Part shown: positions 1-13,251 of the stretch, one piece after another
How the letters are laid out: each line of letters opens with the position of its first letter
How positions within the stretch are numbered: the first letter of the stretch is position 1
Assembly (NCBI GenBank): GCA_039589275.1
Contig: JBDHHP010000012.1
Span: 2,573 to 66,572, forward strand
Reading direction: 5' to 3'
Source: Gemmatimonadota bacterium
GTDB lineage: Bacteria > Gemmatimonadota > Gemmatimonadetes > Gemmatimonadales > GWC2-71-9
Length of the DNA stretch: 64,000 bases
Made by a program: the position numbers and the translations under genes
Notes under the pieces: generated by a model
Told to the model about the DNA's origin: nothing
The model's input: the letters and a program-made list of their open reading frames with translations, nothing else
The model's database searches: none

Positions 1-1918
1 GCCCGGCGGCAACCCGCTGCGCCGTTGGATGTCGCCCGAGGTGTTGTCATGGGGCGAGCTGTTGTTGGCCACCCCCGTGATCCTCTGGGGTGGATTTCCC
101 TTCTTCGTGCGCGGCTGGAGATCGGTTGTCACCCGCAACCTCAACATGTTCACGCTGATCGGTCTCGGCGTTGCCGTTGCCTACGTCTTCAGCCTGGTAG
201 CCAGGCTTATGCCGGGCCTGTTCCCGGACTCGTTCCGCAACGAGGCAGGAGAGGTCGGAGTTTACTTCGAGGCGGCAGCAGTGATCGTGACCTTGGTGTT
301 GCTGGGACAGGTGCTGGAACTCAGAGCGCGGAGCCGCACGGGAGCTGCCATCAAGGCGCTGCTCGGCTTGGCTCCCAGGTTCGCTCGACGCATCGAGGCG
401 GACGGGGTCGAGCGCGACGTGCCGCTCGACCAAGTGCAGCCGGGTGACCGGTTGCGAGTGCGACCCGGCGAGAAGGTGCCGGTGGACGGGACGGTGCTCG
501 ATGGCGTCAGTTCCGTGGATGAGTCGATGATCACGGGCGAGCCGATCCCTGTCGAAAAAGTCGCCGGCGATCGCGTGGTCGGCGCGACGGTGAACGGCAC
601 CGGATCCCTGGTAATGCAGGCGGAACGCGTGGGAGGTGAGACACTGCTGGCCCAGATCGTTCGCATGGTGGCAGAGGCACAGCGCAGCCGAGCCCCGATC
701 CAGAAACTGGCGGATGTGGTGGCGTCGTATTTCGTGCCTGCCGTGGTGATCATCGCGGTAGTGACGTTCGTGATCTGGGCGCTGGCGGGTCCACAGCCGG
801 CCATGGCGTATGCCCTGATAAACGCGGTCGCGGTCCTGATAATTGCGTGTCCCTGCGCCCTTGGGTTGGCCACTCCAGTGTCCATCATGGTGGCTACGGG
901 GAAAGGGGCGGGCCTCGGTGTGCTGTTCAAGAACGCGGAAGCGATCGAGGTGTTGCGCAACGTGGACGTGCTAGTGGTTGATAAGACCGGCACGCTCACA
1001 CTGGGCAAGCCGAAACTCGTTTCGGTCGTGGGCTTGAACGGTTGGAGTGACAAGGAGCTGGTGCGCTTCGCCGCCAGTCTCGAGCGGGGCAGCGAGCATC
1101 CTCTCGCGGCAGCTATCGTCGAAGGAGCCGAAGAGCGGAGCATTCCATTGATCGACGTAGACTCGTTCGCGTCGGTGACCGGGAAGGGTGTAAAGGGCAA
1201 CGTCGGGGGTCGCGCAGTAGCTCTGGGGAACGCAGCGCTGATGGAGCAGCTCGGCGTGTCGATAGAAGTAGCCGAAAAGCGGGCGGAGTCGCTGCGGGCG
1301 GAAGGGCAGACGGCGATGTTCGTCGCCGTCGACGACCGTGTAGCCGGCATTGTTGTGGTGGCCGACCCAATCAAGTCCACGACGCCGCAGGCGATTGAGC
1401 GACTGCACCAGGAAGGTGTGAAGGTCACCATGCTTACCGGAGACAGTCGCACCACGGCCGAAGCCGTGGGCCGCGAACTCGAAATCGACGACGTGGTTGC
1501 CGAGGTGTTGCCCGATCAGAAGTCGGAGGTCCTGAAGCGACTCCAGAGCGAGGGCCACGTGGTAGCCATGGCGGGCGACGGAATCAACGACGCCCCTGCG
1601 TTGGCGCAGGCGCACGTGGGCATCGCGATGGGTACGGGCACCGACGTTGCCATGGAGAGCGCGGGTGTAACGCTCGTCAAGGGCGATCTGCGCGGAATCG
1701 TCCGGGCCAGACGACTCAGCCGCGCAACAATGCGCAACATCCGGCAGAATCTGTTTTTCGCGTTCATCTACAACAGCTTGGGCGTGCCGGTGGCCGCCGG
1801 CGTGCTGTACCCGTTCCTGGGCATTCTGTTGAGTCCAATGTTCGCCGCTGCGGCCATGAGCTTTAGCTCGGTTTCCGTGGTTGGCAACGCGCTCAGGTTG
1901 CGCGGGGCGAGGGTATGA
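1..1918 (+). CDS. copA: Cu(I)/Ag(I)-translocating P1B-type ATPase, 5-prime partial (runs off window start)
   Basis: Frame is open from nt 2 to TGA 1916-1918. Motifs: ITGEP, CPC ([13 protein letters not shown]), [13 protein letters not shown], and the P1B-1 TM7/TM8 signature (IYN..P and P-x6-MSFSS-x5-N). Confidence 0.93.
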
Positions 1919-2100: not shown

Positions 2101-2808
2101 TCAGAACTTGATGCTGTGAATTACTACCGCTGAGGCTACGCCGACGCCTGCCCCGATGAACACATCGGAAGGGTGGTGCTTGCCTGCCGCAACCCGGAGC
2201 ACACCGACGCCCGTTGCGCCAGCCATGAGTACCCAGCGCAGCCACGGCTTGTCGTCCTCCGTGATACCGTTGCGAGTCAGCCAGTAGCTGGTAGCCAACG
2301 CAAACGCCGTGGACGTGTGACCCGAGGGCATGGATCTCTGGTTGTTGGGCCCGTCTGCTGCGCCGGGCGCCTGGTCCGTGTAAAGGACCGGGCGTTTGCG
2401 TCCAATGGCCCCTTTGGCCAAGTGGGTGATAGCCTCGGCCCAGAGTAACGACTCTACGGACGCGACGATACCGACCTGACCGGATCGACCTTCTCTCGCC
2501 AAGTCAAGCCAGCTGACCAGCGCAACTGCAGCTCTGGTTATGTCACTGGCTCTAGCTGTTACGGCCTCGGGCTCGGTGACAGCCCATCGATCGAAGAACG
2601 GAAGGTCTGCAGGATCGCACGGTGCGCAGGACGGTGGAGCTTCATGCCATCCCGAGATCCGCTCAATGCCCCACACGAGCGCTGCGCTGCTCGCAATGAT
2701 CCCGTCTTTCGCAGTGATGAGTGGAGGCAATGTCGGCTGGCCCGAGAGGTGGTGGGAGGCCAGGAGTGCCGCACACACCAGAAGCGAAGACGGTCGTATC
2801 GGAGTCAT
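2101..2808 (-). CDS. PAP2-family (type-2 phosphatidic acid phosphatase-like) phosphatase
   Basis: Motifs KRP (GRKRPVLY), PSGH (MPSGHTS) and RVAAGKHHPSDV. Start moved to ATG 2808 (MTPIRPSSLLVCAALLA, signal-like). The upstream 105 codons of ORF 2101..3123 are Arg-rich read-through. Confidence 0.85.
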   Translation of the reverse strand: MTPIRPSSLLVCAALLASHHLSGQPTLPPLITAKDGIIASSAALVWGIERISGWHEAPPSCAPCDPADLPFFDRWAVTEPEAVTARASDITRAAVALVSWLDLAREGRSGQVGIVASVESLLWAEAITHLAKGAIGRKRPVLYTDQAPGAADGPNNQRSMPSGHTSTAFALATSYWLTRNGITEDDKPWLRWVLMAGATGVGVLRVAAGKHHPSDVFIGAGVGVASAVVIHSIKF

Positions 2809-2999
2809 ACGAGTCGGCCCGGTCACTCTGTTCTGCGCCAGTGGGCTACGAAACACGATCATACTCCTCTCGAACTCGGTCGCCTGTATCGGACCGCAAC
2901 TGAGCCATACGGGGCCGTGCCGGCATCTGTTCCGAGGAGCGCAAGCAGGCCTTCCGCGTCTTGGAAGGCCTGCCCAAGTCGCATGCTGAAGCTGTTGGC

Positions 3000-3557
3000 T
3001 CAGCCGTTGTCGTCGTCCTCGACTTCTAGGTCCATACCGTCTTCGAATTCCAACTCGAACTCGACCAGCTGATCCTGAATCGCCGCGAGATCCCACACCG
3101 TTCCGTCGGGCATCTCGATCCACGCAGCCGGGCCCAGGGTGACTACTAGGTCCACGCTGCCTCCCTCAGCGATCTCCAGCGGTGGGTCGAGTTCCATCTC
3201 GACCTCGATCTCCGCTTCGAAGTAGGTCGTGAAGTCTACGGTGCTTCCGCCGGTCGGTGTGAACGCTCCCACCACCACCATGCTCGCTTCGTCGGGCCAA
3301 TCGGGGAACGCAGCCCGCACCTCAACGAGCAACGCGGCGATGAGCGCGGCGTCCGTCTGCTCCTCGTCATCGTCATCGACTTCGATGTCTTCGATCTCGA
3401 GTTCCAGCTCCTTGTATTGCCCTGCCGGTACGTTCGCAGCCGTAACGGTGACCGGAGCGCCGTCCAGCGGGACGTTGATGAATAGGTATCGCTGCTCGAA
3501 GTCGTCGCAACCAGCCCGGGCCTGCTCATCGTCATCGTCGCAGGGCCTTGCCGCCAT
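3000..3557 (-). pseudogene. Very acidic protein apparently lacking its N-terminus (abuts the IS fragment); possibly DUF4382-like
   Basis: 185-aa D/E-rich ORF with a beta-rich core (VTVTAANVPAGQYKELELEIEDIEV) and no signal peptide. Its first codons overlap, out of frame, the end of the transposase fragment. Confidence 0.4.
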
Positions 3558-4237: not shown

Positions 4238-5518
4238 ATGGTGCAACCGTTTTTCGTCATAGCAGCCCTCGCGATGGCGCCCGTCGCGGAGGTGAGCGAG
4301 CAGTACGCCGATAGTCTCCTGCTGAACCAGGCTATCCAGCAGGCTCGGCTCGCCAACCCAATGCTTCAGGCCGCCCGCTACCGGGCCGACGCCGCCGCTG
4401 AGCGCGTGCCGCAGGCCGGGGCGCTGCCCGACCCGATGCTCTCATTCGGAATGAGGAACTGGGTCGCGCGGGACTGGAGCGCCAGCGCGCCGATGTCAGC
4501 CTGGAGCGCCAGCGCGCCGATGTCAGCCAATGTCATCCAGCTGACGCAGCGATTCCCCTGGCCCGGTAAGCTCGGGTTCAGCGAGGAGCGGGCCGAGCGA
4601 CTTGCGGAGGCCCAGTTGCTCGATGCTGCTGAGACGGAGGTGGCGCTGTATGCCCGGGTCAAATCGGTCTACTACCAGTTGGCCTACATCGACCGCTCCA
4701 TTGTGATCATGCAGAACACACGGGAACTGCTGCGCAACTTCCTCGAGGTCGCCTCCACGATGTACGCGGTGGGCTCGGGCCTACAGCAAGATGTGCTTCA
4801 GGCCCAGGTTGCCGTTGCTCAGATGACCGAAGACATCACGGTCATGGAGCAGATGCGTATCGCGATGGCCGCGCGACTGAACGCGCTGATCGGTAGGGGA
4901 GCGACGACGCCCATCGGCGGACTCGAGCTGCCGCCTGCGGGCGAAGAGCTTCCCCTGCCGGACGCCCTCGTCTCCCTCGCAGCCGAGCGCAGGCCGGCGC
5001 TCCAGGCCGCGGAGCAACGCATTCAGGCTGCGGAGGCAGGCTACAGAGCTGCACGCAGGAAGCTATATCCCGACATCGCGGTGACCGTTGGCTACGGCCA
5101 ACGTCCCGATTTCGCAGACCTGGCAACCGTTATGGTCGGGGTGAGCATCCCGATCTTTGCCGGCTCGCGCCAGCTGCCACTACGCAGGGAGATGGAAGCG
5201 GTGCGATCGCTGGAGCAGGCGCGCGCCACCGATCTCTACAACGAGACCTTCGCGCGCCTCTCCGAGCTGAGAGCCGAAGCCGAGCGCGCTCGAACACTCT
5301 CGGATCTCTACACCACGTCCGTATTACCACAGGCACGCGCTGCGGTGGAGTCGGCGCTCTCTGCGTATCGGGTAGGCGGCGTGGATTACATGACGCTGGT
5401 CGCAAATCAAATGACCGTAAATCGCTACGCAATCCAGACAGTACGACTCATCGCCGATTTCCACCGCGCGGTGGCACAGATCGAGGCGCTGGTGGGCGGT
5501 GACATAGGAGGTAACTGA
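4238..5518 (+). CDS. TolC-like outer-membrane factor of a heavy-metal RND system (CusC/CzcC-like)
   Basis: 426 aa. An in-frame TAA at 4226 fixes ATG 4238. OEP-type repeats are present (LLLNQAIQQARLANPMLQAARYRADAA...; RPALQAAEQRIQAAEAGYRAARRKLYPDI). The stop overlaps the next start (TGATG 5516-5520). Confidence 0.88.
   Translation: MVQPFFVIAALAMAPVAEVSEQYADSLLLNQAIQQARLANPMLQAARYRADAAAERVPQAGALPDPMLSFGMRNWVARDWSASAPMSAWSASAPMSANVIQLTQRFPWPGKLGFSEERAERLAEAQLLDAAETEVALYARVKSVYYQLAYIDRSIVIMQNTRELLRNFLEVASTMYAVGSGLQQDVLQAQVAVAQMTEDITVMEQMRIAMAARLNALIGRGATTPIGGLELPPAGEELPLPDALVSLAAERRPALQAAEQRIQAAEAGYRAARRKLYPDIAVTVGYGQRPDFADLATVMVGVSIPIFAGSRQLPLRREMEAVRSLEQARATDLYNETFARLSELRAEAERARTLSDLYTTSVLPQARAAVESALSAYRVGGVDYMTLVANQMTVNRYAIQTVRLIADFHRAVAQIEALVGGDIGGN
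4474..4527 (+). repeat. Perfect 27-bp tandem duplication (2 copies) inside the OMF gene
   Basis: CTGGAGCGCCAGCGCGCCGATGTCAGC occurs at 4474-4500 and again at 4501-4527. In frame it gives WSASAPMSA-WSASAPMSA. Confidence 0.97.
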
Positions 5519-6744
5519 TGAACAAGCTCTCTGCATCAATCGGGACTCTTGCCATGTTGTTCGCCGCATGCGGCGGGGAGCCGGCCGAGGAATCGCCGAT
5601 GGAGGGCATGACCGCCGAAGAACATGCCATGCACACCGGTGGTGGCGGCGGTACCACGGACAGCACCGGGGCGCTGATCCGTAATCCCGTCCACGTGACG
5701 CCCGATCAGGAGCGCGCCCTGGGAATCGTGTACACGATGGCCCGCCGTACGTCGTTGGAGCGGACGATTCGGACGGTCGGACAGATACACGCAGCCGAAC
5801 CGAACGTGGCCGACGTGACGCTCAAGGTCGACGGCTTCGTGGAACGGTTGATGGTCGCGTCGACCGGCGAGGCGGTGCGCGCAGGGCAACCGCTGCTCGA
5901 GCTATACGGCCCCAAGCTCGTCGCAGCCCAGGAAGAGCTGTTGACTGCCAGACGTCTGGTCTCGCGCGTCGACAGCTCCTCGCAAGAAGCTTGGGAGAAC
6001 GCCAACCAAATGCTCGAGGCCGCCCGCCGGCGCCTGGCTTATTGGGACATCACCTCTGAGCAGATCGACCGTATCGAGCAAACGGGAGAAGTGACCAAGA
6101 CACTGACACTGGTCTCGCCGTTCACCGGCATCGTGTTGGAGAAGAAGGTGCTGGACGGGCAGCGCGTCATGGCCGGCATGAAGCTGTACCAGATCGCGGA
6201 CCTCACCGAAGTGTGGATCGAGGGCGAGGTGTTCGAGCAGGACCTGCAGCACGTGGGCGTCGGCTGGCCAGCTCATATAGAGGTCGCTGCGTATCCGGGA
6301 CAACACATCATGGGTCGGGTCAGCTTCGTGTACCCCACCGTGGATCATGCGACCAGGACCAACCGGGTGCGGGTGACGGTGGCCAACAGGAGTCTGCGGC
6401 TCAAGCCGGGCATGTTTGCCACGCTCTTTTTCGACGTGATGATCGGGGATGACGTGCTCGTGGTACCCACCGAGGCGATCCTGGCCACAGGCGAACGCGA
6501 CTTGGTTTTCGTGCGCGAGTCCGACGGCATGCTCTACTCACGCGAGGTGGTTCTCGGATCCCGCGCCGGCGGCTTGGTGCAGGTGCTGAGCGGTCTGGAT
6601 GAAGGAGCGACTGTTGTCGGGTCGGCCAACTTCCTGATGGATGCGGAGTCGCGTCTGGCGAGCGCCGGAGCGATGGCCGGAATGGACCACGCTACCGAGG
6701 ATGTACCGCCACAGCCCCCGATGGAGCACCAACATGATCAATAA
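5518..6744 (+). CDS. RND periplasmic adaptor lipoprotein (CusB/CzcB-like) with Met/His-rich tails
   Basis: Lipobox LFAAC. Adaptor core: LVSPFTGIVLEKKVLDGQRVMAGMKLYQIADLTEVWIEGEVFEQD. N-tail EESPMEGMTAEEHAMH and C-tail AMAGMDHATEDVPPQPPMEHQHDQ. Confidence 0.9.
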   Translation: MNKLSASIGTLAMLFAACGGEPAEESPMEGMTAEEHAMHTGGGGGTTDSTGALIRNPVHVTPDQERALGIVYTMARRTSLERTIRTVGQIHAAEPNVADVTLKVDGFVERLMVASTGEAVRAGQPLLELYGPKLVAAQEELLTARRLVSRVDSSSQEAWENANQMLEAARRRLAYWDITSEQIDRIEQTGEVTKTLTLVSPFTGIVLEKKVLDGQRVMAGMKLYQIADLTEVWIEGEVFEQDLQHVGVGWPAHIEVAAYPGQHIMGRVSFVYPTVDHATRTNRVRVTVANRSLRLKPGMFATLFFDVMIGDDVLVVPTEAILATGERDLVFVRESDGMLYSREVVLGSRAGGLVQVLSGLDEGATVVGSANFLMDAESRLASAGAMAGMDHATEDVPPQPPMEHQHDQ

Positions 6745-9700
6745 GATCATTGCATGGTCGCTCCGTAATCGCTTCCTGGTTTTGCTGGGAACGGCCGCGG
6801 TGTTCGGCGCTGGTGTCTTGGCCATGCGCGCGACGCCCCTGGATGCCATTCCCGATCTGTCTGACGTACAGGTCATCATTCAAGCCGACTTCCGCGAGCA
6901 GGCACCGCAGATCGTAGAGGACCAAGTCACTTACCCGATTGCCTCGGAGATGCTCAAGGTCCCGGGAGCACGGGTAGTGAGGGGTTACTCGTTCTTCGGG
7001 CTCAGCCTGGTTTACGTGATCTTCGAGGACGGCACCGACATCTACTGGGCGCGCTCGCGGGTGCTGGAGTACCTGAACGGGATCCGGCAGAACATGCCCC
7101 CCGGCGTCGAGCCCCTGCTCGGCCCCGACGCCACGGGAGTGGGCTGGGTATACGAGTACGTGCTGGAGTCGGACAGACACGACCTGGCCGAACTGCGTTC
7201 GCTGCAAGACTGGTACATCCGCTACCAGCTCACCGCCGTTCCGGGTGTCTCCGAGGTAGCAACGGTCGGCGGTTTCGTGCGCCAGTATCAGGTCGAGGTC
7301 GACCCGGAGCGGCTACGGGCGTTCAACATCCCGGCTACCCGCGTGGCGCAGGCGATTGGGGCCCACAACGTCGACATCGGCGCCCGCGTGCTGGAGATGG
7401 GTGGCCGCGAGTACATGATACGCGGCCTCGGGTACCTCGAAGACATCGAAGACGTCGAGCAGGTAACCGTCGGAGCAACCCCTACAGGCACGCCGATACG
7501 CGTGGCGGACGTGGCATCAGTAAGCTTCGGGCCTGCCCCCCGCCGGGGCGCAGCAGACTGGAACGGCCGGGGTGAAGCAGTAGCGGGAATCGTTGTCATG
7601 CGCTTCGGGTCCGACGCCCTGCGGACCATTGAGGCCGTGAAGGACCGTCTGGTGGAAATCGAAGAAGGGCTGCCCGAAGGTGTGACCATTCGCACCGCTT
7701 ACGACAGAAGCGATCTCATCCACCGCGCAATCGAAACGCTGCAGGAAAAGCTGATCGAGGAATCCCTGATCGTAGCCGCCATTGCGGTGCTGTTCCTGCT
7801 TCACGCCCGCTCAGCGCTTGTCGCGATAGTGACGCTACCTCTCGGCATCTTGATGTCGTTCATCGTCATGCGGATGATCGGGGTGAACGCCAACATCATG
7901 AGTCTGGGCGGCATCGCGATCGCCATCGGTGCCATGGTGGACGCGGCGATCGTGATGATCGAGAACATGCACAAGCACCTGGAGCGGTCGGACGGGACTC
8001 AGGATAGGTGGGAGATCGTACTCGAGAGCGCCAAACAGGTGGGGCCGCCTCTGTTCTTCTCACTCTTGATCATCACGTTCAGCTTCCTGCCGGTGTTTGC
8101 CCTGGAGCAACAGGAAGGGCGCCTCTTCAAACCGCTTGCGTTCACCAAGACGTTCGCAATGGCGAGCTCCGCACTGCTGTCGATCACGTTGGTGCCGGTC
8201 TTGATGGGGTATCTGATCAAGGGCCGTATCAGACCGGAGGCCGGCAACCCGATTAACCGAGCACTCAGGGCGATCTATCGTCCGGTGATCGGATTCGCCA
8301 CCGGAAGTCCCTGGTCCGTCGTGGCCATCGCGGCCTTGGTGCTGGGAGCCACCGTCGTTCCCTGGCGCCAACTGGGGAGCGAGTTCATGCCACCGCTGCG
8401 CGAGGGATCGATCCTGTTCATGCCCACCACCGTACCCGGTGTGTCCATCGCGCAGGCGCGCGAGGTATTGCGACAACAGGACAGCATCCTGGTTTCCTTC
8501 CCCGAGGTCGAGACGGTGCTCGGCAAGGTCGGCCGCGCCAACACCGCCACGGACCCTGCGCCACTCGCGATGTGGGAGACGACGATAATCCTCAAGCCTG
8601 AAGAGGAGTGGCGTGCCGGGTTGAGCTACGACCAACTGATATCGGAGATGGATGCCGCGACGAGGCTGCCGGGGGTCACCAATTCCTGGACCATGCCCAT
8701 CAAGGGCCGCATCGATATGCTGGCTACCGGGATTCGCACACCCGTCGGCATCAAGATCTTCGGTCCCGATCTCGACACATTGCAGGCCCTCGGCGAACAA
8801 GTGGAGCGGATCGTTCAACAGGTGCCGGGCACGCGCAGCGCCTTCGCTGAACGGGGAGTAGCCGGGTACTACGTTGACATCGACATCGACCGCACTGAAG
8901 CCGCGCGCTACGGCCTAAATGTCGGAGACGTGCATCGGTCTGTAATGGCGACCGTCGGCGGAATCAACGCGGCGATAACCGTCGAGGGCCGTGAGCGGTA
9001 CGCGGTGAACGTGCGCTACCCGAGGGAATTGCGCGACGATGTCGACAAGATCAAGGACGTACTAATCTCGACCATGGGTAACGCACAGATTCCACTCGGG
9101 CAGCTGGCCGAGGTCGCGGTGGTCAAGGGACCGATGACGGTTAAGACCGAGAACGCGTTCCCCGTCACGACCATCTTCGTTGATATCGACGAACCTGATG
9201 TGGGCGGCTACGTACGCAACGCGCAACAGACAGTAGCGCAACAGCTCCAGCTTCCGCCGGGCTACACCTTGGTCTGGAGCGGTCAGTACGAGTTCATGCA
9301 GCGTGTAGCGGAGAAGCTCCGTCTCGTAATCCCGGTAACACTAGGAATCATCTTTCTGCTCCTGTACCTGAACTTCAGAAGCGTTGCCGAGTCGTTGATC
9401 GTGATGCTCGCACTGCCGTTCTCGTTGGTGGGCGGTATCTGGCTGCTTTGGCTGCTGAGCTACAACACCAGCGTTGCCGTATGGGTCGGCTTCATTGCCC
9501 TGGCAGGCGTGGCTGCGGAAACGGGGGTGGTGATGCTGATCTATCTCGACGAAGCGTTCCACCGGCGCAGCCTAGAGGGCAAGATGAAGACGTTCGACGA
9601 CGTTGCGGCAGCGGTGAGAGAAGGAGCCCTGGAGCGACTGAGGCCGGTCATAATGACGGTCACGGCGATCACGGCGGGCTTGGCGCCGATCATGTGGAGT

Positions 9701-9895
9701 GCCGGCACGGGAGCCGATGTCATGAAGCGAATTGCGTCTCCCATGGTAGGCGGCATGGTGAGCGCTACGCTGCTAACGCTCGTGGTAATTCCGGCCATCT
9801 ATCTCCTGTGGCGGTCTTGGCAGGTGCGCCACCGACCGGAAGCTGCCGTGCGCGGCGCTTTGCAGGACGACATGGCTCTAACTCCAGGTGATTAG
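6734..9895 (+). CDS. Heavy-metal efflux RND permease, CusA/CzcA family
   Basis: 1053 aa from ATG 6734 (MINKIIAWSLRNRFLV...), with an 11-nt overlap onto the adaptor gene. Typical RND layout with two large periplasmic loops. The first 31 codons of ORF 6641.. were discarded as overlap read-through. Confidence 0.95.
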   Translation: MINKIIAWSLRNRFLVLLGTAAVFGAGVLAMRATPLDAIPDLSDVQVIIQADFREQAPQIVEDQVTYPIASEMLKVPGARVVRGYSFFGLSLVYVIFEDGTDIYWARSRVLEYLNGIRQNMPPGVEPLLGPDATGVGWVYEYVLESDRHDLAELRSLQDWYIRYQLTAVPGVSEVATVGGFVRQYQVEVDPERLRAFNIPATRVAQAIGAHNVDIGARVLEMGGREYMIRGLGYLEDIEDVEQVTVGATPTGTPIRVADVASVSFGPAPRRGAADWNGRGEAVAGIVVMRFGSDALRTIEAVKDRLVEIEEGLPEGVTIRTAYDRSDLIHRAIETLQEKLIEESLIVAAIAVLFLLHARSALVAIVTLPLGILMSFIVMRMIGVNANIMSLGGIAIAIGAMVDAAIVMIENMHKHLERSDGTQDRWEIVLESAKQVGPPLFFSLLIITFSFLPVFALEQQEGRLFKPLAFTKTFAMASSALLSITLVPVLMGYLIKGRIRPEAGNPINRALRAIYRPVIGFATGSPWSVVAIAALVLGATVVPWRQLGSEFMPPLREGSILFMPTTVPGVSIAQAREVLRQQDSILVSFPEVETVLGKVGRANTATDPAPLAMWETTIILKPEEEWRAGLSYDQLISEMDAATRLPGVTNSWTMPIKGRIDMLATGIRTPVGIKIFGPDLDTLQALGEQVERIVQQVPGTRSAFAERGVAGYYVDIDIDRTEAARYGLNVGDVHRSVMATVGGINAAITVEGRERYAVNVRYPRELRDDVDKIKDVLISTMGNAQIPLGQLAEVAVVKGPMTVKTENAFPVTTIFVDIDEPDVGGYVRNAQQTVAQQLQLPPGYTLVWSGQYEFMQRVAEKLRLVIPVTLGIIFLLLYLNFRSVAESLIVMLALPFSLVGGIWLLWLLSYNTSVAVWVGFIALAGVAAETGVVMLIYLDEAFHRRSLEGKMKTFDDVAAAVREGALERLRPVIMTVTAITAGLAPIMWSAGTGADVMKRIASPMVGGMVSATLLTLVVIPAIYLLWRSWQVRHRPEAAVRGALQDDMALTPGD

Positions 9896-9904
9896 GACAG
9901 GACT

Positions 9905-10255
9905 ATGAACTCGATGGTCGAGATTCGCGCAGTGGTGCGCATAGAGATGCTCGATAGGGTTGTGCGGACACTCAAGGAGTCGGGTTGCCCTAGGCTCACG
10001 GTAACGCGAGTGCACGCCGTGGGTGCAGGAGCCGACCCAACCCATCCGAAGTATGGCTTTGAAGAGGGCTCGGCGTACGTGGACAAGGCTCACGTGCAGT
10101 TCATTTGCGCTGCCGAACGCTGCGACATGTTCACCGAGTTGATCGCCAACGCGGCTAAGACGGGGCAACGGGGAGACGGGATCGTCTCCGTTCATCCGGT
10201 GAGCACGGTGGTCAAGATCAGGACTGGGATAATCGGCCTGGCCGCATTGGCCTAG
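9905..10255 (+). CDS. PII (GlnB/GlnK) superfamily protein with divergent T-loop, 9 nt downstream of the RND pump
   Basis: 116 aa. AAKTGQRGDGIVSVHPVSTVVKIRTG aligns with the GlnB C-terminal TGKIGDGKIFV...VIRIRTGE. The N-terminus has a beta-alpha-beta pattern (VEIRAVVRIEMLDRVVRTLKESG). Confidence 0.8.
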   Translation: MNSMVEIRAVVRIEMLDRVVRTLKESGCPRLTVTRVHAVGAGADPTHPKYGFEEGSAYVDKAHVQFICAAERCDMFTELIANAAKTGQRGDGIVSVHPVSTVVKIRTGIIGLAALA

Positions 10256-10315
10256 AGCCCTTCGGAAAGTTGGCACGAGTTGTTCGGAGCCGGGAAGAAA
10301 CGAGGAAGGGCTGAT

Positions 10316-10774
10316 ATGAGATTTGTGAGACCTGTTTTGACGGCGTGGGCGCTCGTGGCTGTCGCGAGCGTGTATGGTTCGGCGCTCTACGCTCAAGGGC
10401 ATTCCAACGAGGCGGCGGAAGTGGTGCACGCCTTTCACGCGGCAATAGCCGCCGGCGACTCAAGTGGCGCGCTGCGATTGCTCGATCCCGACGTGGTCAT
10501 ATACGAGAGCGGCGGAGTGGAACAGTCGCGAGCCGAGTTCGAATCACATCACCTCGGCAGCGACATAGCGTTTGCGCAGAGTACTGACAGAACCATGACA
10601 GAACAGCACGCCGTCGAATCGGGGGAGTATGCCTGGTTCAGGAGCGTTTCAGAGGTGCGCGGCGAGTTCAGGGGACGCCAGATAAACTCGCGCAGCACGG
10701 AAACCGTGATCCTACGGCGCAGCGATGAGGGTTGGCGCATCGTGCACATACACTGGTCGTCGCGACCGTTGTGA
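10316..10774 (+). CDS. Secreted NTF2/SnoaL-like (DUF4440-like) protein
   Basis: ATG 10316 follows GAGGAAGGG. Signal peptide MRFVRPVLTAWALVAVASVYGSALYA. Other family cues: AAEVVHAFHAAIAAGDSSGA... and a C-terminal EGWRIVHIHWS. Confidence 0.7.
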   Translation: MRFVRPVLTAWALVAVASVYGSALYAQGHSNEAAEVVHAFHAAIAAGDSSGALRLLDPDVVIYESGGVEQSRAEFESHHLGSDIAFAQSTDRTMTEQHAVESGEYAWFRSVSEVRGEFRGRQINSRSTETVILRRSDEGWRIVHIHWSSRPL

Positions 10775-10811
10775 ACCGTACGCCAATCTCAACCAGCGTG
10801 GGGTTGGGCAA

Positions 10812-11120
10812 ATGAATGCGACAATGAAGCCCCGCATACCCGATGATGTAATGATCGCATCCGCCGAGGTGATCAAGTGCATGGGACATCCAATGCGCCT
10901 CCGTCTGCTCGAAGCGCTGGTATCCGGGGAAAAGTCGGTATCTGAACTACAGGACGATGTTGGCGGGACCCAGGTAGCGGTGTCCCAGCAGTTGACCACC
11001 CTCAAAGGCCGAGGACTGGTGGGAAGCCGGCGACAAGGCGCACACATGTATTATCGCATCACCGAGCCGAAGGTGACGTTCATCTTGAATTGCATACGAA
11101 CTAGTCCTATTGACGATTGA
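10812..11120 (+). CDS. ArsR/SmtB-family transcriptional regulator
   Basis: Winged-helix core: HPMRLRLLEALVSGEKSVSELQDDVGGTQVAVSQQLTTLKGRGLV..R.G....Y. Start at ATG 10812. Confidence 0.88.
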   Translation: MNATMKPRIPDDVMIASAEVIKCMGHPMRLRLLEALVSGEKSVSELQDDVGGTQVAVSQQLTTLKGRGLVGSRRQGAHMYYRITEPKVTFILNCIRTSPIDD

Positions 11121-11199
11121 CCAATCGTTCATTCGGCGCGGCTGCGGACGATCTGAAGACTGAGTATACAATGAGAATCCGAACAACCGGAGGTTATCA

Positions 11200-12174
11200 A
11201 TGAAGCCCTTTGCGTATTCTACGCTCTTGCTGGCCGGCCTGTTGCCAGCCGCAGTTGCGTGTGACGGCGATACAACAGCACCAAATGGAGAGTTCACGGC
11301 GCTACTGTCTGTGGCACCCACGGGCGGGACAACCGATGTTGACCCTAACACGACTGTGACGATGGAGTTCGGCGCCGCGATGCACCAGGAGATGTTTGTC
11401 GCGCTACACGGAGAAGACATGACGGGGATGTACGGACCCTTGGTCGACGGAGCTTGGAGTTGGTCGCAGGACCGCATGCGTCTGATGTTCACGCCCGACG
11501 CAGCGCTAATGCCCGCCACCCGCTACACGGTTCACGTCGGCGGTGGCATGATGGACGTCGAGGGGCACGTAATCGATCTCGGGGAGCACGGACCGGGGAT
11601 GGGCGGTCAGTGGATAACCCAGGGGATGATGCAGGGGTGTGCCATGCAGGTGTGTGGCGGGATGATGGGACAAGGATGGACGCATCCGGACAACGGCAGC
11701 TTCGGCATGGGGTTCACGTTCACCACCGCGGCGGCGCCGGCCCTCTTGACCGTCACGCCGGGGGGCGGGACCATGGACGTGGACCCCAACACCAACATCG
11801 ATCTAGAGTTCAGTCACGCCATGCACGGTGAAATGCATGCGGCGCTGCACCAGCAAGACCACACCGGCCGCTACGGCCCGCTCGTGATGGGCACCTGGAG
11901 CTGGTCGGCCGACAGTACACACCTCAGGTTCATGCCTGATTCGCCGCTCGATCCAAACACTGATTACACGATTCACATCGGCGGTGGCATGATGGACGCC
12001 GAGGGGCACGTGATCGATCTCGAGGAACACGGACCGGGAATGGGCGGTCAGTGGATAACCCAGGGGATGATGCAGGGGTGCATGATGCAGGTATGCGGTG
12101 GCATGATGGGAAAGGGTTGGATGCATCCGGAGAACGGAAGCTTCGGGATGGGGTTCACCTTCACCACTAGATGA
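11200..12174 (+). CDS. Met-rich lipoprotein built from two tandem Ig-like (Big_5/SbsA-like) domains, each followed by a Met/Gly/Cys tail; putative Cu(I)/Ag(I)-binding protein
   Basis: SD GGAGG lies upstream. Signal/lipobox: MKPFAYSTLLLAGLLPAAVAC. About 34 of 324 residues are Met. Motif GGGMMD.EGHVIDL.EHGPGMGGQWITQGMMQGC.MQVCGGMMG.GW occurs twice. Confidence 0.8.
   Translation: MKPFAYSTLLLAGLLPAAVACDGDTTAPNGEFTALLSVAPTGGTTDVDPNTTVTMEFGAAMHQEMFVALHGEDMTGMYGPLVDGAWSWSQDRMRLMFTPDAALMPATRYTVHVGGGMMDVEGHVIDLGEHGPGMGGQWITQGMMQGCAMQVCGGMMGQGWTHPDNGSFGMGFTFTTAAAPALLTVTPGGGTMDVDPNTNIDLEFSHAMHGEMHAALHQQDHTGRYGPLVMGTWSWSADSTHLRFMPDSPLDPNTDYTIHIGGGMMDAEGHVIDLEEHGPGMGGQWITQGMMQGCMMQVCGGMMGKGWMHPENGSFGMGFTFTTR
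11293..12171 (+). repeat. Intragenic tandem duplication, two 441-bp (147-codon) units
   Basis: Unit 1 is about 11293-11733 and unit 2 about 11734-12171. The 3-prime ~180 nt of each unit (from GGCGGTGGCATGATGGAC at 11539 and 11980) are near-identical at DNA level. Confidence 0.9.
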
Positions 12175-12310: not shown

Positions 12311-12814
12311 ATGACCGACGCTCGATTGACCGAGATACTCGCTGTACTCGATCCGAAGCCTGGTAAACCGCTGTGGCACGGTGGCGCCAGTCCCCTCGGA
12401 TCATTGCGCGGCGTCTCCCCGGAACTGGCCGCGTGGAAGCCCTACCGCGGGGGGCACAGCATCTGGGAGTTCACGCTGCACATCGCCTATTGGAAGTATG
12501 CGGTGAGAAGAAGGCTCGAGGACTCGGCAGTCGGAGGGTTTCCACGCTCGCCGGCGGATTGGCCCGCGATGCCGAAGGGTCGGGACGACAAATCATGGCG
12601 CAGCGACCGATCGTTGCTTCGTGAGGAACACGAAACCCTCATAGCGGCAATTCGGAGCTTCGATCCCAAGAGGCTCGATGAGAAGGCGTCGGGAAGGAAG
12701 GTGTACCGCTATCTGGATCTGCTCCATGGTGTGGTGATGCATGACACCTACCATGTGGGTCAGGTGCAGTTGCTCAAGCGGATGTATCGAGCCAGAAAGA
12801 GCAAGGCAAAGTGA
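12311..12814 (+). CDS. DinB-superfamily (DinB_2-like) protein
   Basis: 167 aa with a four-helix His pattern: HSIWEFTLHIAYWKYAV ... VMHDTYHVGQVQLLKRMY. Confidence 0.75.
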   Translation: MTDARLTEILAVLDPKPGKPLWHGGASPLGSLRGVSPELAAWKPYRGGHSIWEFTLHIAYWKYAVRRRLEDSAVGGFPRSPADWPAMPKGRDDKSWRSDRSLLREEHETLIAAIRSFDPKRLDEKASGRKVYRYLDLLHGVVMHDTYHVGQVQLLKRMYRARKSKAK

Positions 12815-13251
12815 TCTCGCAGTCGTGGACCGTTTCTCTCGCCACGGCGCTGCTGCTGGGGTGCAGTCAACCCCACGTCGGCAGTTCGCGCGAGGCAGCG
12901 GTGCTGGCGGCTGACAGCGCGCGCATTGTGGCAATGCTGTCGGACGATACTGTGGCACTGGACTCCCTCCTACATAGCGAACTCATCTACACCCACTCAA
13001 ACGGCGTGATCGATTCCAAGCAGTCCCTCTTAGAGGGCCTCATGAGTGGCCGTGTGGACTACCGCTCAATCGAAGTGGAAAGTGCCGTGGTGCGCATCCA
13101 TGGTGACGCCGCGGTCGTGACTGGGCGGGTCCGAATGGAGGTTGCAGCCGGCGAAGCGGTGCACCATCTGCTGAGCAACTACACGACGGTCTATTGGTGG
13201 GAGGAAGGTCGGTGGCAGATGGTAGCGTATCAGTCGTGCGCGGCGGCTTGA
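12811..13251 (+). CDS. NTF2-like (DUF4440/SnoaL-like) lipoprotein
   Basis: GTG 12811 overlaps the previous stop (GTGA). Lipobox LLLGC. Other cues: LHSELIYTHSNGVIDSKQSLLEGL...TTVYWWEEGRWQMVAYQS. Confidence 0.7.
   Translation: MISQSWTVSLATALLLGCSQPHVGSSREAAVLAADSARIVAMLSDDTVALDSLLHSELIYTHSNGVIDSKQSLLEGLMSGRVDYRSIEVESAVVRIHGDAAVVTGRVRMEVAAGEAVHHLLSNYTTVYWWEEGRWQMVAYQSCAAA

Follow-up and report, generated by a model that had tools for sequence, protein, structure and literature searches.

The 64,000-nucleotide stretch of contig JBDHHP010000012.1 from a Gemmatimonadota bacterium, called the window here, opens on a cluster of copper and silver genes that includes a gene for a 324-residue, methionine-rich lipoprotein (the Met-rich gene and protein). 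In order, the cluster comprises a P1B-type Cu-ATPase, a PAP2 phosphatase gene and an acidic open reading frame (ORF), both on the minus strand, an IS110-like fragment, a CusC-like outer-membrane factor (OEP), a CusB-like periplasmic adaptor, a CusA-type pump of the heavy-metal resistance–nodulation–division (RND) class, a P-II-like protein, a SnoaL-like protein, an ArsR-family regulator, the Met-rich gene, and DinB_2 and DUF4440 genes (Table 1). The two-unit architecture of the Met-rich protein, the conservation of its family and the linkage of that family to cus/cop genes form the basis of the reading developed here, in which the protein probably serves export by binding periplasmic Cu(I)/Ag(I).

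A two-unit Met-rich lipoprotein and its family

The Met-rich protein begins with MKPFAYSTLLLAGLLPAAVAC, in which the lipobox (…LLPAAVAC) ends at Cys21. The column of this cysteine is retained in at least 90% of the 101 relatives that were aligned, and a lipobox-like motif occurs in 110 of 122 family sequences. Its N-terminal signal peptide and lipobox cysteine mark it as a predicted bacterial lipoprotein. A public gene call (P0001) is 270 residues long and begins at Met55, and so lacks the signal peptide and lipobox as well as the opening strands of unit 1. This start was probably mis-called, and 11200 is likely to be the better one, because GGAGG precedes its ATG and because the 81%-identical P0002 and most other relatives retain the signal peptide and the cysteine. 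The 324 residues include 34 Met (10.5%, against a mean of 2.8% in ten long ORFs of the same window), 52 Gly (16%), 16 His, 8 Trp and 5 Cys, the last being the lipobox cysteine together with C147/C152 and C294/C299. The first-pass annotation, made from the sequence without database searches, had described a lipoprotein of this length with about 34 Met (about 10%), and the count agrees.

The mature part of the protein is a tandem of two units of 147/148 residues, with a start-to-start spacing of 441 nucleotides. Pfam Big_5 (PF13205), an Ig-like domain, matches two stretches of the protein with 77 bits and E=2.2e-21, well above the gathering score of 23.6 bits, and the better stretch covers residues 178–270. 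The initial division into two units of about 147 residues, each with a Big_5 domain, is thereby borne out as residues 30–177 and 178–324. The Pfam scan returned nothing credible outside Big_5 for the 324-residue protein.

An AlphaFold2 model of unit 2, computed with the 101 aligned relatives, has a mean predicted local distance difference test score (pLDDT) of 90 and a predicted template-modelling score (pTM) of 0.86. It contains an Ig sandwich of six strands, with the G region spanning GGGMMD.EGHVIDL. For the remainder of the Met-rich part, the model shows a short GQW strand, a pair of short helices lined with Met (QGMM and MQVCGGMM; pLDDT about 72) and, at the C-terminus, a strand (GMGFTFT) that is added to the sandwich. 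By this prediction, the Met-rich part is no loose tail but folds as an extension of the Ig domain. Two details of the earlier description change accordingly. The GGGMMD.EGHVIDL motif, previously assigned to the tail, falls within the Big_5 match and corresponds, by the strand order of the model, to the F–G loop and G strand. The separate Met/Gly/Cys tail that was thought to follow the Ig domain is folded back onto the sandwich in the model. In the full-length prediction (pLDDT 83.8, pTM 0.63), the units appear as two beads following a low-confidence signal peptide and linker; pLDDT values below 50 are confined to these segments (residues 1–29). A sequence-profile search of the PDB returned generic Ig domains only, including those of TssM and Sap, and no match for the Met-rich part.

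A homologue search collected 129 proteins, and a scan of species-representative genomes located 152 loci. The family lies almost wholly in Gemmatimonadota (Longimicrobiales, Gemmatimonadales and Palauibacterales), with some members in Acidobacteriota/Vicinamibacteria, and its median Met content is 9%. Single-unit proteins of about 180 residues are in the majority, accompanied by at least 16 double-unit proteins and at least one triple-unit protein. The units are near-identical in some doubles (P0007) and old and diverged in others, so unit multiplication has recurred within the family. The sources name the homologues ‘Ig-like domain-containing protein’, ‘hypothetical’ or, once, ‘CopC’ (P0007). 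No NCBIfam model matches the Met-rich protein, and literature searches found no description of a Met-rich Ig family. Together with the Pfam result (Big_5 only) and the generic Ig matches in the PDB, these searches agree with the original view that the architecture lies outside the described families. Two further searches say little about family size: a profile search with the unit alignment was dominated at the top by giant multi-Big_5 surface proteins that match the Ig part only, with P0148 and P0221 as the sole true members, and a search with the Met-rich tail alone returned one 81-residue fragment, probably owing to the low complexity of the query.

The 101-sequence alignment identifies a small set of His, Met and Trp positions that hardly vary (unit-2 numbering). 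H40, H82, M87 and W130 are each retained in 100 of the 101 sequences and W108, M113 and M140 in 99; M114, M104 and M126 follow with 93, 90 and 86, and M31 and M33 of the B–C loop with 87 and 89. Gly residues G84–G86 and G105–G106 are invariant or nearly so. In protein numbering, the conserved positions are H70, H112, M117, M134, W138, M143/M144, W160 and M170 for unit 1 and H217, H259, M264, M281, W285, M290/M291, W307 and M317 for unit 2. Judging by Ig topology, the B–C loop (AM..GM) and the F–G loop (H-x-GGGMM) share one end of the sandwich, where they would make up a single His/Met cluster. The Cx4C pair that had been pointed out in each unit is indeed present in both (C147/C152 and C294/C299). 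It is a subclade character, found only in the nine closest relatives, and was rejected as a metal site of the family. In about 37–40 of the 101 members, Cys replaces both W56 and F67 (…MNCAWS…TLTCTP…; for example in P0083, P0096 and P0120); the two cysteines probably link adjacent strands as a disulfide, and they define a separate subclade.

The two units of the window protein (W1 and W2) are about 60% identical at the DNA level in the Ig part and 87% identical over the distal part as a whole; the near-identity of the 3′ part had originally been put down to either recent duplication or gene conversion. Comparison with the units of the closest relative, locus L089 (R1 and R2), distinguishes the two. 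In the Ig part, nucleotide identity is 72% for W1–R1 and 81% for W2–R2, against 60% for W1–W2; in the distal tail, the corresponding values are 89%, 80% and 78.5%. Because orthologous units are closer than paralogous ones in both segments, the duplication predates the split of the two organisms, and a recent duplication is rejected. The segment between them behaves differently: codons 114–146 and 261–293 (GGGMMD…QGMMQG) are 94.9% identical between W1 and W2, compared with 82% for W1–R1 and 77% for W2–R2. The same codon is used at 22 of 25 degenerate identical residues in this segment, against 0.45 expected from codon usage (P ~1e-5). Each copy in the window resembles the other more than its orthologue in L089. 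This segment is a gene-conversion tract of about 99 nucleotides that arose in the lineage of the window, so that of the two original explanations conversion stands, limited to this short tract. High DNA identity elsewhere in the tail is explained by strong protein conservation and by the single codons of Met and Trp.

Linkage to copper and silver export genes

Gene neighbourhoods were compared at 80 loci from species-representative genomes, using tblastn with the proteins of the window and the predicted proteins of annotated contigs. Many of the contigs are short, and all linkage counts are lower bounds. A CusA-type gene at 55% identity or more is found at 35 of the 80 loci, CusB at 34, OEP at 31 and a P1B ATPase at 21. 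PCYCGC proteins (12 loci), YHS proteins (7) and multicopper oxidases (6–8) are less frequent. A Cu-linked gene of any kind is present at 51 of the 80 loci, at 38 of them within 1.5 kb, and at 29 of the 40 loci that have at least 5 kb on either side. The commonest arrangement places the Met-rich gene directly 3′ of cusA on the same strand (23/80), and at six loci it lies directly 5′ of the OEP gene in a cusCBA cluster. The Met-rich gene thus shares with cusF its co-location and co-orientation with CusA-type genes. A random 20-kb segment would be expected to overlap a heavy-metal-efflux RND gene in a few percent of cases (roughly 6%, an estimate and not a measured control), and the observed linkage to CusA-type pumps appears to be far above this figure. 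The survey had been named in the first-pass annotation as a check on whether homologues accompany metal-resistance genes, and its outcome leaves that proposal standing.

Gene order varies around this common theme. Pfam-annotated contigs show the orders OEP–CusB–CusA–P-II–CsoR–Met-rich gene–SnoaL and OEP–CusB–CusA–P-II–Met-rich gene. In a Longimicrobiales contig (L001, 9000–13702), a divergent two-component system is followed by a PCYCGC protein, a 140-residue protein, the Met-rich gene, a multicopper oxidase and CopB, and the same operon type occurs in L018, L021, L026 and L056. The 140-residue protein has weak dihaem-cytochrome/magnetochrome-like matches. Palauibacterales-type loci carry a DinB_2 gene (9071–9613 in L004), the Met-rich gene and then a 50-residue YHS protein. 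CsoR-family repressors, YHS proteins and PCYCGC proteins recur as neighbours in other relatives, and an RND fragment of the ACR_tran family abuts the Met-rich gene at one locus that was scored as Cu-negative. SnoaL_3/DUF4440-like homologues lie near the gene at 12 of the 80 loci, and a P-II-like gene recurs between cusA and the Met-rich gene at 17 (by tblastn; for example L001 6239–6580, L008 9119–9490 and L092 5320–5661). In L089, whose CusA is 90% identical to that of the window, the Met-rich gene begins 120 nucleotides after cusA. The spacer holds only a 3′ remnant of a SnoaL gene (1528–1647), with no P-II, ArsR or intact SnoaL gene, indicating that these genes were either deleted in L089 or inserted in the lineage of the window.

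E. coli CusA is the best PDB match of the window pump, with 1142 bits against 549 for ZneA, and the three residues of its Cu(I) triad (Met573, Met623 and Met672) align with Met in the window protein. The CusB-like adaptor is an apparent lipoprotein (…LFAAC) with a Met/His-rich N-terminus (MEGMTAEEHAMH) and a C-terminus of the form AGAMAGMDH…MEHQHDQ; these termini are plausible metal-receiving segments.

This linkage bears on whether the protein handles copper at all. It could instead be a structural Ig-like envelope lipoprotein of the S-layer or adhesin type that lies beside metal genes incidentally, or it could serve a different soft metal (Hg, Au or Cd, for example). Big_5 domains are found overwhelmingly in giant surface proteins, and those of S-layer and surface proteins (SbsC, Sap and the TssM Ig domain) are kin at the sequence level, at the E-value given above. 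In addition, MerR/MerT genes lie near the Met-rich gene in L008, a MerR homologue lies about 2.5 kb away in L042, and the regulator in the window is of the ArsR/SmtB type. The generic Big_5 proteins are giant multi-repeat molecules that lack both the H-x-GGGMM loop and the extension of about 50 Met/Gly/Trp-rich residues ending in NGS[FY]GMxFxFTT. Conservation specific to the Met-rich family concerns Met, His and Trp, whereas Hg or Cd would call for thiols, and linkage to CusA-type pumps with the Cu(I) Met triad exceeds the rough, unmeasured random estimate by far. We therefore regard a structural role or another metal as very improbable.

A candidate periplasmic Cu(I)/Ag(I) binder

Under the oxidising conditions of the periplasm, Cu(I)/Ag(I) is bound by the ligand set of His, Met and Trp. 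With moderate confidence, and arguing from sequence and context, we favour the view that the Met-rich protein, anchored by lipid in the periplasm, binds Cu(I)/Ag(I) and serves CusCBA-type export on a scaffold unrelated to that of CusF. The loops at the end of each sandwich and the fold-back C-terminal segment would display the invariant His, Met and Trp residues. The protein would pick up Cu(I)/Ag(I) in the periplasm, or the metal that the P1B ATPase releases, and pass it to the Met-rich N-terminus of CusB, from which it would move to CusA for export. Tandem units would provide more sites per molecule. A specific hand-over to CusB is held with less confidence than a part in Cu/Ag binding for export. 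The original suggestion of an uncharacterised periplasmic Cu/Ag buffer or chaperone is supported by the linkage to Cu genes; metal binding itself is predicted from this linkage and from the invariant His, Met and Trp positions.

The proposed role is the one performed by CusF, the chaperone of the E. coli CusCFBA system (PDB 2VB2). Both are small periplasmic accessory proteins whose genes lie within a cusCBA operon or at its border, a similar His/Met/Trp-type ligand set would be expected in both, and in the window, as in E. coli, the likely partner is a CusB with a Met-rich N-terminus. CusF is an OB-like five-stranded barrel with its site at H36/M47/M49/W44, whereas the Met-rich protein is predicted to be an Ig-like Big_5 sandwich. 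CusF is also soluble, whereas the Met-rich protein is predicted to be lipid-anchored and has several units; and the gene order is C-F-B-A in the one case and C-B-A, an optional P-II-like gene and the Met-rich gene in the other. Membership of the CusF family was rejected on the basis of the predicted Ig sandwich, the absence of a Pfam match and an hhalign probability of 0.45% (with the reference sequence checked against 2VB2). A stronger form of the proposal is that Gemmatimonadota and Vicinamibacteria have no CusF and that the Ig-fold lipoprotein is there the dedicated metallochaperone of CusCBA. It would then carry a new Cu(I)/Ag(I) site, composed of the H-x-GGGMM loop and the fold-back Met/Trp residues and possibly capped by cation–π contact with an invariant Trp as in CusF, and the number of units (1–3) would tune its capacity. 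We put this form forward only tentatively.

Several observations weigh against the favoured reading or limit it. At 29 of the 80 loci no recognised Cu gene was found; many of these contigs are short, several have full flanks, and greedy ORF calling in this high-GC DNA gave too much noise for the neighbours to be classified. On one long contig, only cytochrome c and methyltransferase genes adjoin the Met-rich gene. A tblastn search of 1.4 Mb of loci and the window found no CusF homologue, which speaks for the favoured reading but is a weak test of absence, given that one CusF sequence served as the query. True CopC homologues lie directly 3′ of the Met-rich gene, after cusCBA, in L010 (about 10747–10869) and L012 (about 10589–10822), with tblastn E-values of 1e-6 and 1e-3. 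Both protein types therefore coexist at these loci, and other chaperones may be present alongside the Met-rich protein. The proposed clustering of ligands into a candidate metal site is drawn from Ig topology. Finally, a position beside a multicopper oxidase and CopB, or beside the ATPase, would suit a general buffer no less than a chaperone dedicated to CusB.

Such a buffer would be a high-capacity periplasmic sponge that binds Cu(I)/Ag(I) on many Met sites and has no specific partner, as do PcoE/SilE and CopM. We consider it unlikely, while giving it appreciable weight. Each unit carries several MM/GM motifs, the units have been multiplied repeatedly (at least 16 doubles and one triple, with P0007 near-identical), and the gene adjoins different Cu systems in different genomes, namely cusCBA, the P1B ATPase, or a multicopper oxidase and CopB. 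Sponges of the PcoE/SilE and CopM types are likewise periplasmic, rich in Met and linked to Cu/Ag resistance clusters. The commonest position of the gene is nonetheless a fixed one, directly after cusA, which is typical of a dedicated accessory. Sponges of these types are disordered or helical and contain no Ig domain, whereas a folded structure is predicted for the Met-rich protein, whose invariant ligand positions are few; no match to their families was found by Pfam at E up to 1. A disordered PcoE/SilE-type sponge with MxxM/HxxM repeats was accordingly rejected as a classification in view of the high pLDDT of the predicted structures.

The Ig fold also raises the question of whether the protein is a CopC/PcoC-like partner of a multicopper oxidase and CopB, presenting Cu(I) for oxidation or shuttling copper between the oxidase and membrane proteins. 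CopC and PcoC (PDB 1M42, 1LYQ and 2C9R) likewise combine an Ig-like β-sandwich with Met-rich elements. A Foldseek search of the PDB returned generic bacterial Ig domains (TssM, SbsC and an L,D-transpeptidase), with CopC/PcoC ranking equally high among the best matches (E 2e-5 to 1e-4; template-modelling score 0.65–0.75, normalised to CopC/PcoC). The predicted fold is thus of the CopC/PcoC type, although generic Ig domains score as well. In the Longimicrobiales clade (L018, L021 and L026), the Met-rich gene lies directly 5′ of the multicopper oxidase and CopB, and the source name of P0007 is CopC. Sequence comparison argues the other way: Pfam CopC (PF04234) gives no match at E up to 1, and hhalign assigns a probability of 2.6% (reference sequence checked against 1M42). 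The Cu(II) site of CopC/PcoC uses the amino-terminal His1 together with Asp/His, whereas the mature Met-rich protein would begin with the lipidated lipobox Cys followed by DGD, and no conserved N-terminal His is found in the family alignments. The conserved Met/Trp residues of the family lie mostly in the F–G loop and the C-terminal fold-back segment rather than in the position of the CopC Met loop; M31/M33 of the B–C loop are the exception and are aligned to that loop by hhalign without significance. Linkage to multicopper oxidases is also infrequent compared with linkage to cusA, and genuine CopC homologues adjoin the gene in L010 and L012. A CopC-like partnership is in our judgement improbable.

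Very high Met content would also suit a sacrificial sink for oxidants (hypochlorite or reactive oxygen species) that is repaired by periplasmic methionine sulfoxide reductase and binds no metal. Met-rich periplasmic scavengers such as MrpX of Azospira are known. Copper stress itself is reported to oxidise periplasmic Met proteins such as CusF (PMC9302797). The neighbours of the Met-rich gene are copper export genes and not msr genes, and a sink would require neither the invariant His and Trp residues nor a defined fold. We consider a role as oxidant sink to be scarcely credible, and return to Cu(I)/Ag(I) binding for CusCBA-type export as the favoured function.

Periplasmic copper handling is known chiefly from a few proteobacterial chaperones: CusF, CopC/PcoC, CopK and PcoE/SilE. 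If the Met-rich family binds Cu(I)/Ag(I), it would represent an independent scaffold, an Ig-like domain that carries its own Met/His/Trp elaboration, and would account for the operation of CusCBA in phyla without CusF. It would also provide a name for more than 150 loci that are now ‘Ig-like domain-containing’ or ‘hypothetical’, and, for metagenomes from soil and sediment, a marker of gene clusters for copper/silver resistance. The advance would be incremental and not conceptual, a new scaffold for a familiar job, of use to the copper-homeostasis field and to annotation.

The regulator and other features of the cluster

Table 1. Coordinates and supporting evidence for features of the copper/silver cluster in the window
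Feature	Position	Strand	Evidence or remark
Cu-type P1B ATPase, CPC motif	29..1918	+	TIGR01511, CopA NF007952; at window edge
PAP2 phosphatase gene	2101-3123	-	Between ATPase and cus operon
Acidic (Asp/Glu-rich) ORF, 185 residues	3000-3557	-	No Pfam match
IS110-like ORF, 99 residues	3532-3831	-	DEDD_Tnp_IS110, E=1.9e-4, under Pfam cut-off
Outer-membrane factor, CusC-like (OEP)	4238..5518	+	TolC/NodT family matches
27-nucleotide tandem duplication in OEP gene	4474-4528	+	2.0 copies, 100% match
CusB-like periplasmic adaptor	5518..6744	+	HlyD_D23 ‘CusB’ E=6e-75, NCBIfam matches
CusA-type heavy-metal RND pump	6734..9895	+	TIGR00914, 1156 bits
P-II-like small protein	9905..10255	+	Pfam P-II E=7e-13; directly after cusA
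SnoaL_3/DUF4440-like protein, secreted	10280..10774	+	Pfam
ArsR/SmtB-family regulator	10812..11120	+	HTH_5 E=6e-8; NF033788 77.6 bits (cut-off 55)
GGAGG, Shine–Dalgarno-like	11189-11193	+	6 nucleotides 5′ of ATG at 11200; read from sequence
Met-rich lipoprotein ORF, 324 residues	11200..12174	+	Stop codon 12172-12174
Signal peptide and lipobox (…AVAC, Cys21)	11200..11262	+	Sequence; Cys column conservation
Unit 1, residues 30–177: Big_5 Ig-like and Met/Gly/Trp-rich C-terminal part	11287..11730	+	Pfam, alignments, full-length AlphaFold2 model
Gene-conversion tract, unit 1 copy, codons 114–146	11539..11637	+	94.9% nucleotide identity to 11980-12078
Unit 2, residues 178–324: architecture as unit 1	11731..12171	+	Pfam, AlphaFold2 model, column conservation
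Gene-conversion tract, unit 2 copy, codons 261–293	11980..12078	+	Compared with 11539-11637
DinB_2-family gene	12311-12814	+	Flanks Met-rich gene
SnoaL_3/DUF4440-like protein, secreted	12811-13251	+	Recurrent neighbour type, with 10280-10774

The regulator gene upstream of the Met-rich gene is genuinely of the ArsR family, as first described, with a start that is uncertain among in-frame ATGs at 10725, 10812 and 10824. Its pairing with the Met-rich gene is not conserved. An ArsR homologue lies near the Met-rich gene at 3 of the 80 loci and is absent from L089, the 81%-identical relative, and a CsoR-family gene takes its position in another genome. The 79-nucleotide spacer between arsR and the Met-rich gene contains no operator-like inverted repeat and no promoter match, and scans for promoters, terminators and inverted repeats around both genes gave nothing above chance and no ArsR-type operator. 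Control by ArsR may occur in the source genome and is not a property of the family. The regulator has two Cys residues, in VIKCMGHP and ILNCIRT, and scores below the threshold of the BigR model; it apparently lacks the canonical α3N or α5 metal sites.

The copper cluster does not stand out in composition: the GC fraction stays at 0.57–0.64 over the whole 64 kb and does not shift at the cluster, and a compositional island was rejected. The extremely acidic ORF lies beside the PAP2 gene. The neighbouring IS110-like ORF, similar to the N-terminal region of IS110-family transposases, has the look of a mobile-element relic; it lies between the ATPase block and the cus operon. In the OEP gene, the perfect 27-nucleotide tandem repeat encodes WSASAPMSA-WSASAPMSA and is a recent in-frame duplication.

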